Shown here: positions 16,930-52,755 of the stretch, piece after piece
Numbering within the stretch: the stretch's first letter is position 1
Layout: each line of letters begins with the position of its first letter
Source: Escherichia coli O157:H7
Lineage (GTDB): Bacteria; Pseudomonadota; Gammaproteobacteria; Enterobacterales; Enterobacteriaceae
Strand: one strand, 5' to 3'
NCBI RefSeq assembly: GCF_013167455.1
Contig: NZ_CP038328.1
DNA: 64,000 nt
Notes under the pieces: model-generated
Told to the model about the DNA's origin: nothing
What the model saw: the letters and a program-made list of their open reading frames with translations, nothing else
The model's database searches: none
Made by a program: the position numbers and the translations under genes

Positions 16930-18891
16930 ATGCGGTTGTTTATTGCCGAAAAACCGAGTCTGGCGCGCGCCATTGCTGATGTCCTGCCCAAACCGCACCG
17001 GAAAGGCGATGGCTTTATCGAGTGCGGTAATGGTCAGGTGGTGACCTGGTGTATCGGTCACCTGCTTGAGCAGGCGCAGCCAGACGCCTACGACAGCCGC
17101 TATGCGCGCTGGAATCTTGCGGATTTGCCGATTGTCCCGGAAAAGTGGCAATTACAGCCCCGACCCTCCGTGACCAAACAACTTAACGTCATCAAACGGT
17201 ACCTGCATGAAGCCAGCGAAATCGTTCACGCCGGGGACCCGGATCGCGAAGGGCAACTGCTGGTGGATGAAGTGCTGGACTATCTACAACTGGCACCGGA
17301 AAAGCGCCAGCAGGTGCAGCGTTGCTTGATAAACGACCTGAACCCGCAGGCGGTTGAGCGGGCGATCGACCGTCTTCGTTCCAACAGTGAGTTTGTACCG
17401 CTGTGCGTTTCTGCGCTGGCGCGAGCGCGTGCCGACTGGCTGTACGGCATCAATATGACCCGTGCGTATACCATTCTCGGTCGCAATGCCGGTTATCAGG
17501 GCGTGCTTTCCGTGGGACGCGTGCAGACGCCCGTGCTTGGGCTGGTGGTGCGCCGCGATGAAGAGATTGAAAACTTCGTGGCGAAAGACTTCTTTGAAGT
17601 CAAAGCACATATCGTGACACCTGCCGATGAGCGGTTTACCGCTATCTGGCAACCGAGCGAAGCGTGTGAACCGTACCAGGATGAAGAAGGGCGCTTGTTA
17701 CATCGTCCACTGGCGGAGCATGTGGTTAACCGCATTAGTGGTCAACCGGCTATTGTCACCAGCTATAACGATAAACGGGAATCAGAATCCGCGCCGCTGC
17801 CGTTTTCGCTTTCGGCGTTGCAGATTGAAGCGGCAAAACGCTTTGGTCTGAGCGCGCAGAACGTGCTTGATATCTGCCAGAAGCTGTACGAAACGCACAA
17901 GCTAATCACTTATCCGCGTTCCGATTGTCGCTATTTGCCAGAAGAACATTTTGCCGGACGCCACGCGGTGATGAATGCCATCAGCGTTCATGCACCAGAT
18001 CTGTTGCCGCAGCCAGTGGTAGATCCAGATATACGCAACCGCTGTTGGGATGACAAAAAGGTCGATGCGCACCACGCCATCATTCCGACCGCACGGAGTT
18101 CTGCGATCAACCTGACGGAGAACGAAGCGAAGGTCTATAACCTGATTTCCCGTCAGTATCTGATGCAGTTCTGCCCGGATGCGGTGTTCCGCAAGTGTGT
18201 TATCGAACTGGACATTGCCAAAGGCAAATTTGTCGCTAAAGCGCGTTTTCTTGCTGAAGCAGGCTGGCGCACGCTGTTAGGCAGCAAAGAGCGCGATGAA
18301 GAAAACGACGGTACGCCATTGCCTGTGGTGGCGAAAGGCGATGAGTTGCTGTGTGAAAAAGGTGAAGTGGTAGAGCGGCAAACCCAGCCGCCGCGCCATT
18401 TTACCGATGCAACACTGCTTTCGGCGATGACCGGGATCGCGCGCTTTGTGCAGGACAAAGATCTGAAAAAGATCCTTCGTGCGACCGATGGTCTGGGGAC
18501 AGAAGCAACGCGTGCCGGGATTATTGAACTGTTGTTCAAGCGTGGTTTCCTCATCAAAAAAGGGCGCTATATCCACTCCACCGACGCCGGAAAAGCGTTA
18601 TTCCATTCGCTGCCAGAAATGGCTACGCGACCGGACATGACCGCGCACTGGGAATCGGTGCTGACGCAAATCAGCGAAAAGCAGTGTCGCTATCAGGACT
18701 TTATGCAGCCGCTGGTGGGGACGCTATATCAGCTTATTGATCAAGCCAAACGTACTCCGGTGCGGCAGTTTCGCGGCATTGTGGCTCCGGGCAGTGGTGG
18801 CAGTGCTGATAAGAAAAAGGCTGCACCGCGTAAACGTAGTGCGAAAAAAAGTCCGCCAGCAGATGAAGCCGGAAGCGGGGCGATAGCGTAA
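16930..18891 (+). CDS. topB: DNA topoisomerase III
   Basis: 653 codons from [19 protein letters not shown] (Toprim start); lysine/arginine-rich C-terminal tail. Confidence 0.9.
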
Positions 18892-19018
18892 GCGAGCGAA
18901 TCTTTCGTGCTATTCGAGTCATATTCTGAAATATCCAGCGGATCAAGAAAATTCGTTGGATATTTTTTTTGCATGGATAAAATTATCGCCTCTAAAGTAT
19001 GTAATAACAGGGAATGTG

Positions 19019-20059
19019 ATGAAAAAAGTTTTATTACAAAACCATCCTGGGAGCGAGAAGTATTCTTTTAATGGCTGGGAAATATTTAATAGTAATTTTG
19101 AACGGATGATTAAAGAAAATAAGACCATGCTGCTTTGTAAGTGGGGGTTTTATTTAACATGTGTTGTCGCTGTAATGTTTGTATTCGCAGCGATAACATC
19201 CAACGGTTTGAATGAAAGAGGCCTGATTACCGCGGGATGCTCTTTTCTTTATCTATTAATTATGATGGGGCTTATTGTTCGGGCCGGTTTTAAAGCAAAA
19301 AAAGAACAGCTGCATTATTATCAGGCTAAAGGTATTGAGCCGCTCAGTATCGAGAAATTACAGGCGCTACAATTGATCGCACCTTATCGATTCTATCATA
19401 AGCAATGGTCTGAAACGCTGGAGTTCTGGCCGCGAAAGCCTGAACCTGGCAAAGATACCTTCCAATATCATGTGCTTCCTTTTGACTCGATCGATATCAT
19501 AAGTAAAAGACGCGAGTCTTTAGAGGAACAATGGGGTATCGAAGATAGCGAAAGTTATTGTGCCTTAATGGAGCATTTTCTTTCTGGCGACCATGGAGCC
19601 AATACCTTTAAAGCAAACATGGAGGAAGCCCCAGAGCAGGTTATCGCCTTGTTGAATAAATTTGCTGTTTTTCCCTCAGACTATATCTCTGATTGCGCTA
19701 ATCATAGCTCCGGTAAATCCTCGGCGAAGCTAATATGGGCGGCGGAATTATCATGGATGATCTCGATATCAAGCACAGCTTTTCAAAACGGGACAATTGA
19801 AGAAGAACTGGCCTGGCATTATATAATGCTTGCTTCTCGAAAGGCGCACGAGTTGTTCGAAAGCGAAGAAGATTATCAAAAAAATAGTCTAATGGGATTT
19901 CTTTACTGGCATATCTGCTGCTATCGCAGAAAGTTAACGGATGCTGAACTTGAAGCTTGTTATCGTTACGACAAGCAGTTTTGGGAGCACTACAGTAAGA
20001 AATGCCGTTGGCCCATAAGAAATGTTCCCTGGGGAGCATCATCCGTTAAATACTCATAA
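19019..20059 (+). CDS. ynjI: inner-membrane protein of unknown function (DUF1266)
   Basis: 346 codons from the ATG at 19019 (MKKVLLQNHPGSEKY...); AT-richer than its neighbours; the ORF-track form starts at a TTG 63 bp upstream. Confidence 0.75.
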   Translation: MKKVLLQNHPGSEKYSFNGWEIFNSNFERMIKENKTMLLCKWGFYLTCVVAVMFVFAAITSNGLNERGLITAGCSFLYLLIMMGLIVRAGFKAKKEQLHYYQAKGIEPLSIEKLQALQLIAPYRFYHKQWSETLEFWPRKPEPGKDTFQYHVLPFDSIDIISKRRESLEEQWGIEDSESYCALMEHFLSGDHGANTFKANMEEAPEQVIALLNKFAVFPSDYISDCANHSSGKSSAKLIWAAELSWMISISSTAFQNGTIEEELAWHYIMLASRKAHELFESEEDYQKNSLMGFLYWHICCYRRKLTDAELEACYRYDKQFWEHYSKKCRWPIRNVPWGASSVKYS

Positions 20060-47561: not shown

Positions 47562-49823
47562 TTACGCCGGAATTTTGTCAATCTTAGGAATGCGTGACCA
47601 CACGCGGTGTGCTGCCATCAGCGTTAACAGTTCATCCATAAAACTACCGTCGGCGCTGTCAGCTTCCACAATCCCTTCTTCACCCTGGTCAGCGACCTTG
47701 ATTGTTGCTTTAAACTTGCGCGCGTCTCCCGCCAGCGCAATCGGTTTAAGGTGTTTGTAGGCTTCCATCAGGTAGTAGTTGGCATCGCCGTTGTCAGCGA
47801 TATCCGCGATATTGCCGCAAGGGACAATGACCGCATCGACCGTCAGCGAAGGCGCACCGGCAAAGGTAGCGGCTATAGGCAACACCGTACCGTCATCCGC
47901 AGTCACTTCACCCATTCGGGAGTAGAGCAGTTTGGCATGAACGCCTTTGGCCTTCAGCGCCTTGAGAATGGCCAGAAGGTCTGCCGATCTCACTTCATCA
48001 TTAAGTAAAATCGCTACCACGCGACCTTTCACATCACCGTCAGGAATGGCGTACAAACTTAAGGATGGATCCTTTTTCAGACCGTTGACGTCCGGAGGTG
48101 GGGTGATATTCAGCTGGTCGTCAGTCAGTTCGATACCGAGATTTTTCGCCACCGCCTGGGCCAGAGTGAGATCAATATGCGCCAGCTGGTCAACAACGCG
48201 CTCACGAATATACGGACGAACGACTTTGCTTAACTCAAAACTGAAACCATCGACAATATGGCGCTGCTCGAATGGCGTCTGACTTAGCCAGAACAGACGC
48301 GGATGGGAATAATATTCGCCAAAAGATGGACTGCGCTCGCGAACTTTATTTCCTTCCACGCGTTCCTGATATGATTCAAAACCGCCGCGTTTCGGTCCCG
48401 GCGGTGTTTCGCGCGGCCAGTTATCGTTGATCGAGTTCGGTTCGTAATTCGCCGGGTTAGTGTCGATCCCCATACGATGCATGCCGTCACGCTGGAAATT
48501 ATGGTAAGGGCAGGTTGGGCGGTTAATCGGAATCTCATGGAAATTCGGCCCACCAAGACGACTGATTTGTGTATCGGTATAGGAGAACAAACGTCCCTGC
48601 AACAGGGGATCGTTGGTGAAGTCCAGACCAGGAACAATATGACCTGGATGGAATGCTGCTTGTTCGTTTTCGGCAAAGAAGTTATCCGGATTGCGATTGA
48701 GCACCATTTTGCCGACACGCTGAACGGGCACCAGTTCTTCCGGGATAAGTTTAGTTGGATCGAGAAGATCGAAGTCGAACTTGAATTCATCTTCTTCAGG
48801 AATCAACTGGAAGCCCAGTTCGTATTCCGGAAAATCGCCTGCTTCAATGGCTTCCCACAACTCGCGGCGGTGGAAGTCCGGGTCACGTCCGGTTAGTTTT
48901 TGTGCTTCATCCCAAACGAGTGAGGCTTTACCTGCCAGTGGTTTCCAGTGGAAACGTACAAACGTTGCCTTCCCTTCGGCATTAATCAGGCGGAAGGTAT
49001 GAATACCAAAGCCTTCCATGGTGCGGTAACTGCGGGGGATGCCGCGATCCGACATCGCCCACATCACGTTGTGCAGAGTTTCAGGTTGCAGAGAAACATA
49101 ATCCCAGAAAGTATCGTGGGCGCTTTGCCCTTGTGGAATTGCCCAGTGTGGTTCTGGTTTTACCGCATGAACAAAATCGGGGAATTTATGCGCATCCTGG
49201 ATAAAGAAGATTGGCGTGTTATTGCCAACGAGGTCAAAAATACCCTCTTCAGTATAGAACTTGGTGGCAAAGCCACGGATATCACGCACGGTATCGGCAG
49301 AGCCAGCACCACCCTGAACGGTAGAGAACCTAACAAATACTGGGGTGATTTTGTTCGGATCTGAGAGGAAATCCGCTTTGGTGATATCGCTTAAGCTTTT
49401 ATATGGCTGGAAATAACCGTGAGCGGCTGATCCACGTGCATGAACAATACGTTCCGGGATGCGCTCATGGTCAAAGTGGGTGATTTTCTCGCGCAGAATA
49501 AAATCTTCCAGCAGCGTTGGACCACGGCTACCGGCACGCAGTGAGTTTTGATCGTCGGCGATGCGCACGCCCTGATTAGTGGTCAGCGCATAATTTTCAC
49601 TGCCTTTGCGTACGTCTTCCAGAGAATTAAGTTTTTCGTTACGCGTATCAGGGGCTTTCAGGCTCCCTGAGGCGGTAGGTTGTGCACCTGGCGGTGTTGG
49701 TTCAGCCGCTGGACGATGAGAGCCGTCCTCAGGTGCCAGTGAGTCCATCCCCGGTTTCGCTTCGCTGGAATCGTGTAGTGGTGACTGGTGCTGATGTGGG
49801 TTCTTTTCGTTTTGTTGCGACAT
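47562..49823 (-). CDS. katE: catalase HPII
   Basis: 753-aa ORF, large-subunit monofunctional catalase. Confidence 0.95.
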
Positions 49824-50026
49824 TGAACTCGTCTCCTTAATTTATTACTGAAAGGGCCGCTGTTTTGGTCAAAAAACTCTCTAACTATAGACCACCAGCC
49901 AGACCCCGCTTCGGAGACTATTCTGGAAACGGTGTTATGAAATACACGCAAAGCGGGACGTACAGGGGCTAAATCGGCTAAACTACAGTTTTTCTGATTT
50001 TTAATATGCGTTTAGTGAAGCCAGTA

Positions 50027-50269
50027 ATGAAGAAACCGCTCCGCCAGCAAAACCGCCAGATTATTAGCTATGTCCCACGCACGGAACCCGCGCCGCCAGA
50101 ACATGCGATAAAGATGGATTCGTTTCGTGATGTCTGGATGCTGCGTGGCAAATATGTTGCGTTTGTACTGATGGGAGAGTCATTTCTGCGCTCACCGGCG
50201 TTTACTGTGCCTGAATCCGCCCAGCGTTGGGCAAATCAGATCCGCCAGGAAGGGGAAGTGACTGAGTAA
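50027..50269 (+). CDS. cedA: cell division modulator CedA
   Basis: 80 codons from MKKPLRQQNRQIISYV; an in-frame upstream ATG at 50006 is the alternative start. Confidence 0.85.
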   Translation: MKKPLRQQNRQIISYVPRTEPAPPEHAIKMDSFRDVWMLRGKYVAFVLMGESFLRSPAFTVPESAQRWANQIRQEGEVTE

Positions 50270-50545
50270 AGATTACGTACCTCCCGGTTTTGCCGGGAGT
50301 TACATGGCCTGAAATTCTCTATTTCATTGCTACATTCATTCAAACCACCTGTAACAAAAAGCTGCCTTTGACGATCTATTGCTATAAATAAGTGATCTTT
50401 TTTCTTTAATTGTTTATTTATTTTAAAATGGTTAAGTTTTGCTAATCATGATGAGCTATTTTTGATAGTTCATCCTGTGGCGTCGCTCTTAAACTTATAT
50501 TGTAAATGACTTAGATTTAAATGAGATAATAATTTTGTTAACAAT

Positions 50546-51313
50546 ATGAGGCGGGAGATGTTTTCTACAAACTTAATACAGAGTAATTATGGTGATTTAA
50601 ATATTAAAAGCCTGGCTTTCGACTCTTTTAAAGAAAGGCTGCAGTCTACTATGACAGCACTCACTTTCTTTATATCAACGGGTCAATGTGACTGCGATGA
50701 AATAGCAGAATCAAACTTTAATTATATGATTGCCTATATGTCTAACATTAACTATGATGCCTCAAAGCCAGGAGCGCCAGCACTTAGTTTTGATACATAT
50801 CTGCAGGACAATGTTAAATATAGAGTAATAATTAATAATCTTTATGGTAGTGAAATTCGGATAAGAGGTATAAATAAAGATTTTATTGGAATGGATGTCA
50901 CTTCTGTATTTCGCCCAGAAAAAATGACCAATTTGATCAGTATAAAAAACAGGTTGGTTATTCACTATTTAAGGACTATATACTATGAACAATATTATAT
51001 ACATCCTGTCGGGAGCATTTTTGCTGCGATTCAAAAAAATGAGAGTCTCCTAAAGTTTCCTTCGATAATATCAATGCTTAATATCAATCTTCTTTTTAAT
51101 CCACTAAATCTTCCGGGAATGGGAAGTGGTATACTTGAAGATATTATGAGTATTCCAGATAGTTCACTTAGAAAACGTCTCGGGTATGAGGTTTTAAGCT
51201 TCTCGCTACAGGCACATTCATTGAGCCAGGAATGTATTGATAAGTTGGACATTTTTTCGCTGACGATCTGTTTAAATATGAGTCAGTATGCATCGCCGCG
51301 ATGGAACATTTAA
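50546..51313 (+). CDS. ydjO: uncharacterized protein in an AT-rich stretch
   Basis: 255-aa ORF; start possibly at the second Met (50558), which has a GAGG ribosome-binding site; markedly AT-rich. Confidence 0.7.
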   Translation: MRREMFSTNLIQSNYGDLNIKSLAFDSFKERLQSTMTALTFFISTGQCDCDEIAESNFNYMIAYMSNINYDASKPGAPALSFDTYLQDNVKYRVIINNLYGSEIRIRGINKDFIGMDVTSVFRPEKMTNLISIKNRLVIHYLRTIYYEQYYIHPVGSIFAAIQKNESLLKFPSIISMLNINLLFNPLNLPGMGSGILEDIMSIPDSSLRKRLGYEVLSFSLQAHSLSQECIDKLDIFSLTICLNMSQYASPRWNI

Positions 51314-51320
51314 AAAGTAA

Positions 51321-51353
51321 GGCAACGGCCCCTTTACAAAACGGACCGTTGCC
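51321..51353. terminator. bidirectional hairpin between convergent ydjO and ydjN
   Basis: GGCAACGG...CCGTTGCC inverted repeat. Confidence 0.5.
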
Positions 51354-51363
51354 AGCATAAGAA

Positions 51364-52755
51364 TTAATGGTGTGCCAGTTCGGCGTCGTCTTCGCTATCC
51401 AGAATGGCTTTATCGGTTTGCTTCAGCCACTGGCTGGTCAGCGTGCCAGCTGTCATCGAGCCACTAACGTTTAGCGCCGTACGGCCCATGTCGATAAGCG
51501 GTTCAACGGAGATTAACAGCGCCACCAGGGTTACTGGCAGGCCCATCGCAGGCAGCACAATCAGTGCGGCGAAAGTTGCACCACCACCGACACCGGCAAC
51601 GCCTGCGGAGCTAACGGTAACAATACCGACCAGCGTCGCAATCCACATCGGGTCCAGCGGGTTAATGCCAACCGTAGGCGCAACCATCACCGCCAGCATT
51701 GCCGGATACAAACCGGCGCAGCCGTTCTGACCAATGGTCGCACCGAAAGAGGCGGCGAAACTGGCGATGGATTCAGGAACACCGAGTCGACGCGTTTGTG
51801 CTTCCACATTCAGTGGGATAGACGCAGCACTGGAACGGCTGGTAAAGGCAAACGTCAGCACAGGCCATACCTTACGGAAGTACTTCAGCGGACTCACGCC
51901 ATTAATGCCCAGCAGAATGCCATGCACTGCAAACATAATCAGCAGACCGAGGTAGGACGCGACAACGAAACTTCCCAGTTTGATGATGTCTTGCAGGTTA
52001 GAACCTGCAACCACTTTGGTCATTAGTGCCAGAACGCCGTAAGGGGTCAACTGCATGACCAGGCGAACTAGTTTCATCACCCAGCTTTGCAGGGTATCGA
52101 TAGCGGTTAAGACGCGTTCACCTTTCGGCGCATCATCCTTCAGCAGTTTCAGCGCAGCTACACCGAGGAATGCGGCAAAAATTACCACGCTGATAATTGA
52201 CGTCGGATTGGCTCCGGTCAGATCGGCAAACGGGTTTTTCGGGATAAAGGACAAGACCAGCTGCGGAACGCTCAGGTCAGAGACTTTACCAACATAGTTA
52301 CTTTCGATGGCGTTCAGACGTGCAGTTTCTGCACCACCCTGAACCAGACCTTCAGCCGTCAAACCAAACAGGTTGGTTACCAGCACACCGACCAGCGCCG
52401 CAATCAGCGTGGTAAACAAAAGCGTACCAATGGTCAGAAAACTGATTTTGCCTAACTGAGATGCGTTATGCAGACGGGCAACCGCGCTCAGAATAGAGGC
52501 GAAGACTAACGGCATAACGATCATTTGCAGCAGTTGAACATAGCCGTTACCAACAATGTTAAACCACTGTACAGAATCTTTAAGTACCTGGCTGTCAGAA
52601 CCATAAATGGTATGCAGGGCAAGGCCAAAAACCACACCCATCACCAGACCCACCAGCACTTTTTTCGCCAGACTCCACTGTTTATGGCGGGTCTGAGCCA
52701 GCGCAAACAGCAGTACAACGAACACCACGATGTTCGCAATTAATGGAAAGTTCAT
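51364..52755 (-). CDS. tcyP: sodium:dicarboxylate symporter family transporter (L-cystine importer)
   Basis: 463-aa polytopic ORF; named ydjN in older annotation. Confidence 0.85.

Follow-up and report, generated by a model that had tools for sequence, protein, structure and literature searches.

A foreign-looking, AT-rich islet between cedA and tcyP carries a frameshifted ydjO gene in Escherichia coli O157:H7

Results

The stretch of Escherichia coli O157:H7 DNA analysed here (64 kb, hereafter the window) is 100% identical to strain PV15-279 over positions 50000–51400, and the RefSeq annotation of the locus was taken from that strain. The gene order is katE (47562–49823, minus strand), cedA (50006–50269, plus strand), ydjO (plus strand) and tcyP (minus strand). 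The left core flank of ydjO is cedA, which encodes the cell division activator CedA (Pfam PF10729, E-value 7e-46), and the right core flank is tcyP (also named ydjN; 51364–52755), which encodes a cystine/sulfocysteine symporter and is convergent with ydjO. Intact ydjO, as found in K-12, comprises 804 nt and encodes 267 amino acids; in O157:H7 it is annotated as a "frameshifted" pseudogene at 50558–51360, with its start (MFSTN) at 50558 rather than at 50546, where a longer ORF call begins.

An AT-rich islet of roughly one-third GC had been predicted by eye at 50280–51313, and the measured composition bears this out. The segment has a GC content of 33.7%, compared to 49.3% for the whole window, with 31.2% in the 276-bp spacer upstream of the ORF and 34.5% in the ORF (50546–51313); the neighbouring genes katE, cedA and tcyP have GC contents of 51.5%, 52.3% and 52.7%, respectively. 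Over all 1034-bp segments of the 64 kb the mean GC is 49.4% with a standard deviation of 4.5%, which places 50280–51313 at z = −3.46. Only 0.13% of such segments are as low in GC, and the lowest one (33.2%) starts at position 50287. Codon usage is also atypical, as the GC3 of ydjO is 0.31 compared to 0.52 ± 0.06 in the 40 other long ORFs of the window, and rare codons make up 12.7% of its codons compared to 4.8 ± 2.5%, which is 2.6-fold the usual share. In a codon adaptation index referenced to the window, ydjO ranks lowest among the 41 long ORFs. The GC content of the islet is thus outside the normal range, and its codon adaptation is atypical as well.

Two further ORFs of low GC content lie elsewhere in the window. 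The first (58699–60597, minus strand; 632 residues) has a GC content of 39.5%, a GC3 of 0.375 and the second-lowest codon adaptation among the ORFs of the window, and encodes a ShET2 enterotoxin N-terminal domain (PF07906, E-value 2e-46) together with ankyrin repeats. It resembles arpB, a gene that is split in K-12. The other (19019–20059, plus strand; 346 residues, 41% GC) encodes a DUF1266 domain (PF06889, E-value 2e-26) and sits in a local GC trough at 18883–19982.

We examined the distribution of the islet in 5426 complete E. coli genomes, scoring it as present where at least 80% of 50000–51400 was held. Presence is not uniform. The islet is carried by 4256 of these genomes (~78%), and 1124 (21%) have an empty junction with only 46 bp between cedA and tcyP. 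The empty form is present in the B2 archetype CFT073 and also in AR_0089. As a separate observation, CFT073 has a block of three genes between gdhA and topB, which encode a protein with a J domain, a member of the Hsp70 family and a hypothetical protein (locus L069, 37614–42124).

A species scan with CedA, using one genome per species, returned 54 loci. Approximately 50 of the loci are from Enterobacteriaceae other than Escherichia and hold both genes; here cedA and tcyP are convergent neighbours, separated by 50–110 bp in nearly all, and such close spacing is seen in Citrobacter, Salmonella, Enterobacter, Kluyvera, Leclercia and Atlantibacter. Five non-Escherichia loci have longer spacers of 143–911 bp with GC contents of 45–54%. 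No YdjO match was found between cedA and tcyP in any non-Escherichia locus of the scan, these five included. The site is also empty in E. whittamii and in three further Escherichia species representatives. Moreover, the CedA tail QENEVEE, the spacer and the hairpin (AAAAACACCTGTCGGGATGACAGGCGTTT) of empty E. coli are homologous to those of the empty Escherichia species, and this tail resembles the tails of Citrobacter/Salmonella (QENELSE, QENEIAD). As the ancestral CedA tail is common to the empty sites, together with a terminator hairpin that is homologous among them, the empty state is ancestral and the islet acquired. The comparison of loci thus shows that the ydjO islet was inserted into an ancestrally empty site, and horizontal acquisition is strongly supported. 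The original prediction had proposed acquisition from composition; to the alien composition and codons can now be added an empty ancestral site in outgroups, in Escherichia species and in the 1124 E. coli genomes.

Alignment of occupied and empty alleles, together with composition, places the islet at 50252–51361, a stretch of ~1.11 kb that substitutes 64 nt of the empty allele. On the left, identity between the two alleles stops after ...CGCCAGGAA at 50251. The left junction (50252–50269, plus strand) thus lies within cedA and takes in its stop codon and the five sense codons before it (tail QEGEVTE*); these five codons read GEVTE in carriers and have diverged from the NEVEE of empty genomes and outgroups, in which the tail is QENEVEE* or similar. 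In E. albertii and Escherichia sp. MOD1-EC7003, as in the E. coli genomes that carry the islet, the tail is GEV(T/A)E. On the right, identity with the empty allele returns immediately before the tcyP stop codon, at ~51361. The predicted interval was correct in its location and slightly narrow at both edges. A His/Arg difference at the C-terminus of TcyP was considered as an islet-linked change and rejected, as it is a lineage SNP that is not linked to the islet.

At the islet we found no flanking direct or inverted repeats, no tRNA and no integrase or recombinase, and there was no match in the phage collection. No genuine plasmid homolog was found either, the only "plasmid" matches being E. 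coli records of 4.8–4.9 Mb, which are mislabelled chromosomes. An origin as a mobile element is not supported by these results. The lack of mobility hallmarks points to homologous recombination via cedA and tcyP and does not negate acquisition. In addition, the cedA tail linked to the islet is homologous to the ancestral tail but has diverged from it, which argues for spread between Escherichia lineages by homologous recombination. Probably, then, E. coli received the islet, or the islet spread within the species, through recombination in cedA/tcyP from another Escherichia-like lineage and not by a site-specific element. The searches detected no donor.

Within the islet, a hairpin at 50277–50303 (plus strand; −17.2 kcal/mol, z = −3.1), just 3′ of the cedA stop codon, is probably the cedA terminator, though no U-run follows it. 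A consensus scan located the sigma-70 promoter of ydjO, ATGACT-16-AATAAT, at 50506–50533 (plus strand); the same sequence is given in Table 2 of PMC3946193. A simple scan found 4 promoter-like sites, which is no more than the 5.0 ± 2.0 obtained when the sequence was shuffled with its composition preserved, so that any density of such sites follows from composition. A 20-nt block, ATGAGCTATTTTTGATAGTT (50451–50470, plus strand; invariant columns 185–204 of the alignment), lies some 35 nt upstream of the −35 element and is identical in all E. coli alleles examined, including one that is 25% divergent, and in E. albertii, while its flanks have diverged. This block is a candidate cis-regulatory site and may bind a regulator. 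An Rfam search of the locus gave only a chance sub-threshold snoRNA match.

At the other end of the islet, a 15-nt inverted repeat forms a hairpin at 51321–51353. Folding is much more favourable on the minus strand, at −23.4 kcal/mol (z = −5.4), whereas the plus strand gives −16.6 kcal/mol (z = −3.2). The hairpin is followed on the minus strand by CUUACUUUUUAA, a U-rich tail, and starts 10 nt past the tcyP stop codon; together these features identify it as the intrinsic terminator of tcyP. The terminator-like site on the minus strand uses a shorter stem within the hairpin. The last 13 codons of intact ydjO (KATAPIQNGPLPA) run through the same hairpin. The original prediction was therefore right that a hairpin exists here but not that it bounds the islet on the right, as this tcyP terminator lies within the islet and within the intact ydjO frame.

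In the O157:H7 sequence ydjO is a frameshifted pseudogene. A T7 run of intact alleles is reduced to T6 at 51252–51257 (plus strand), which shifts the frame after residue 230 and ends it at 51313, and the product has 251 residues, 21 of them out of frame. The exact 67-mer containing T6 occurs in 304 genomes, and every one of these that was sampled is O157:H7 or O157-like; the alignment extends over 68 nt at the T7 site in the remaining genomes sampled. A second homopolymer, at 51033–51039 (plus strand), is A7 in the window and is a hotspot of inactivating slippage in other lineages. At least 645 genomes have an A7 to A8 frameshift there, to which a cluster of 2273 proteins corresponds. An A6-type frameshift is suggested by the tail of the protein P0012, and 68-nt matches at the run are consistent with an A9 variant. 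At least 949 of the 4256 islet carriers have a frameshifted ydjO. Nonsense alleles also occur: strain KL53 has Q262*, O111:H8 has an additional stop codon, and one protein (P0013) ends after residue 161.

Deletions have affected the locus as well. A repeat search identified a direct repeat, TGACGATCT, at 50369–50377 and 51261–51269 (plus strand), and in Escherichia sp. MOD1-EC7003 an 892-bp deletion between the two copies has left a ydjO remnant. In strain ES4 the deletion is associated with IS1: two IS1 copies replace the stretch from the 3′ end of chbF through cedA and most of ydjO (locus L004, 1194–2986), and only the last ~60 ydjO codons are kept, beside tcyP. The alleles compared here show that the ydjO islet decays repeatedly and that separate inactivating events, by homopolymer slips, nonsense mutations, microhomology deletion and IS1, are frequent.

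The protein was predicted to have no recognisable domain, and our searches agree: Pfam, NCBIfam and PADLOC returned no family match and the best PHROG match was non-significant (E-value 0.37). The AlphaFold model is of moderate quality (pLDDT 67, pTM 0.55) and contains a coherent domain, with residues 20–140 at pLDDT 70–85; no confident fold relative was found. In a search of 5.8 billion proteins all matches were at least 74% identical to YdjO, and those with a named source were from E. coli; phmmer, run exhaustively against 1.84 billion representatives, contributed nothing further but fragments and one protein, P0034. Apart from P0034, the protein-database matches are from E. coli or close relatives, or are fragments, and are at least 68% identical. 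A tblastn search of species-representative genomes added one partial homolog, from E. albertii (38–39% identity). No YdjO homolog was found outside Escherichia in the 5.8 billion proteins, the 1.84 billion representatives or the species genomes and, by these searches, ydjO is an Escherichia-restricted orphan gene.

P0034 (299 residues, E-value 1.5e-36, 26% identity, gapless) was rejected as a distant homolog. Its source is a 2-kb Logan contig, SRR33321306_56313 (L061), that corresponds to the cedA-ydjO-tcyP region with its purines swapped; compared to E. coli it has 588 A-to-G changes, 450 G-to-A changes and only 10 other differences. This purine-swapped contig is a data artefact of a kind able to mimic remote homology in protein libraries. 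YahL and YjfZ (DUF2686), orphans from the paper that put forward ydjO as a marker (see Discussion), are like YdjO in length (264–271 residues), in being restricted to E. coli and in being uncharacterised. They differ from it in showing no detectable sequence relationship (BLASTP E-values 0.22 and 2.1) and were rejected as paralogs.

Among intact ydjO alleles dN/dS is 0.13–0.27, with values of ~0.02 for katE and tcyP. These ratios indicate that moderate constraint has acted on ydjO as a coding sequence during its evolution, and such purifying selection argues against its having been mere junk all along. An allele with 29 member sequences, P0006, carries a 600-bp block (50462–51062) with only 71–85% nucleotide identity and no indels, in which dS is 0.8–0.9 and dN/dS 0.18–0.22. 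The P0006-type block spans the ydjO promoter and the N-terminal two-thirds of the gene (GCA_025283635.1; locus L005, 3900–4500). On either side of it, the DNA of GCA_025283635.1 matches the window at 92–100% identity, and the encoded proteins do so at 99–100%. The block looks like an import from a deeply diverged lineage. In the same comparison katE has, at 48562–49362, a block of 89–93% identity within 96–100%, with an overall dS of 0.20, which suggests mosaic recombination in katE as well.

The partial YdjO homolog of E. albertii lies directly after cedA, has a GC content of 32% and is cut by the contig end; 41 positions are conserved over the ~130 residues present. When the fragment was used to search for a full-length homolog, only a 79-residue fragment was returned. 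The deep divergence of alleles together with the E. albertii homolog points to an islet that is old within Escherichia and whose alleles have been exchanged.

The original prediction also held that the islet is likely silenced, and here published data on K-12 are relevant, as its DNA is 99.1% identical to the O157:H7 sequence at the locus; the published H-NS data are all from K-12. The ydjO/cedA spacer is listed as "promoter island" 1811053_320 and is predicted to be foreign by the Nakamura and Lawrence methods (PMC3661553, Table 1). In the same work it is bound by H-NS in the ChIP datasets of Kahramanoglou and Oshima and unscored in that of Grainger (code "K", not "A"). In vitro, the spacer holds an H-NS site found by genomic SELEX and a sigma-70 holoenzyme site, and its best constitutive RpoD promoter, ATGACT-16-AATAAT, is marked HNS (PMC3946193, Table 2). 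Based on these K-12 data, the ydjO islet is likely to be silenced by H-NS. In the accessible literature we found no report of ydjO de-repression, or of ydjO-specific expression, in an hns mutant.

In an ExPEC strain ydjO is reported to be up at least 2-fold in serum, alongside ydjN (tcyP) and other sulfur-starvation genes (PMC4145685), which would mean that silencing is not absolute. The source states no strand resolution, and the signal may plausibly reflect antisense read-through from the convergent, co-induced tcyP. An anecdotal correlation of ydjO with H2 production in the LTEE rests on two SNPs (PMC10997342).

Discussion

We consider it highly probable that a foreign AT-rich segment of ~1.11 kb, carrying the Escherichia-restricted gene ydjO, was placed between cedA and tcyP, is silenced by H-NS and is decaying. 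This segment, with ydjO, its own promoter region and flanking hairpins, has replaced the ancestral 46-bp spacer and its shared terminator. H-NS would nucleate on the spacer, which has a GC content of 22–30%, and spread across the islet, occluding the promoter at 50506–50533 and any spurious intragenic promoters and leaving ydjO nearly silent. Near-silence would in turn allow frameshifts in the A7 and T7 runs to be tolerated and to spread.

Several observations could be read instead as marks of an accessory gene that is actively kept because it has a real function under particular conditions, be it in the host, in serum, in anaerobic niches or in conflict with phages or other bacteria, with AT-richness and H-NS serving regulation and not the silencing of junk. 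These are the low dN/dS of intact alleles, which holds in the block with high dS, the 38%-identical homolog that E. albertii has at this site, the 20-nt upstream block that is invariant across lineages, the serum induction (PMC4145685) and the LTEE–H2 correlation (PMC10997342). We regard this reading as unlikely, as 21% of E. coli genomes lack the islet, ydjO is frameshifted in at least 949 of 4256 carriers, the O157:H7 strain included, and the protein matches no defence system or other family and no confident fold relative. The serum signal, moreover, co-occurs with that of convergent tcyP in data of unstated strand resolution, and the LTEE link amounts to two SNPs. The constraint on intact alleles might also be taken to mean that YdjO is a genuine Escherichia-restricted protein of unrecognised fold under purifying selection, whose old alleles are exchanged and which serves a conflict or niche function governed by the upstream element and H-NS. 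Its predicted fold would consist of an N-terminal domain made of a helix plus five strands, followed by a helical C-terminal half, and a divergent 600-bp block in a typical background, together with the 38% E. albertii version, would fit such a function. We find this reading doubtful.

The depth of allelic divergence within E. coli implies age, and E. albertii, which is generally placed as an early-branching species of the genus, has a diverged homolog at the same site. An islet ancestral to Escherichia, with the empty sites as precise secondary deletions and the low GC due to relaxed selection on an old native gene, would account for both. However, the spacer, hairpin and CedA tail of the empty sites are mutually homologous, the tail being like that of Citrobacter/Salmonella, and deletion could not recreate them; the true deletion in MOD1-EC7003 differs in that it leaves the islet ends and a 9-bp microhomology scar, and nothing YdjO-like occurs at the site in any non-Escherichia genus of the species scan. 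Largely refuted already, this reading is very improbable. We think it equally far-fetched that the ORF arose de novo in non-coding AT-rich DNA and is not, or barely, protein-coding. The lack of homologs outside Escherichia and of any family or fold match, the moderate AlphaFold model and the passage of the ydjO 3′ end through the terminator hairpin of tcyP would be expected of such an ORF, but dN/dS across the 267 codons is ~0.2 and alleles ~25% apart in nucleotides show no indels, the E. albertii homolog keeps 41 positions over ~130 residues, and residues 20–140 form a coherent model domain.

Read as a foreign, H-NS-silenced segment, the islet resembles the xenogeneic AT-rich DNA of enterobacteria for which the 2006 study of Navarre et al. 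is said to be the paradigm. It shares with such DNA a low GC content, atypical codons and its status as an insertion, as well as the H-NS binding reported for K-12 in two ChIP datasets and by SELEX. It differs from classical genomic islands in lacking an integrase, a tRNA site and flanking repeats, and in consisting of a single gene in 1.1 kb. It is the same locus as the K-12 ydjO/cedA "promoter island" (PMC3661553, PMC3946193), with 99.1% identity and an identical promoter, but in O157:H7 ydjO carries the T7 to T6 frameshift. The islet has thus been described before, as have its foreign character and the binding of H-NS to it. Our additions are incremental and modest: proof of the ancestral state, recombinational boundaries, homopolymer decay, purifying selection and a deeply divergent allele. 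No new mechanism emerges and no long-standing question is opened.

The findings bear on the proposed use of ydjO as a universal qPCR marker for E. coli/Shigella. The BLAST restriction to E. coli and Shigella in that proposal agrees with the present searches. However, ydjO is absent from 1124 of 5426 complete genomes (~21%, B2 strain CFT073 included) and frameshifted in at least 949 more, and E. albertii has a diverged homolog and Escherichia sp. MOD1-EC7003 a remnant. The islet is a textbook single-gene AT-rich insertion that presents four states at one site: empty, acquired, H-NS-bound (as published) and decayed.
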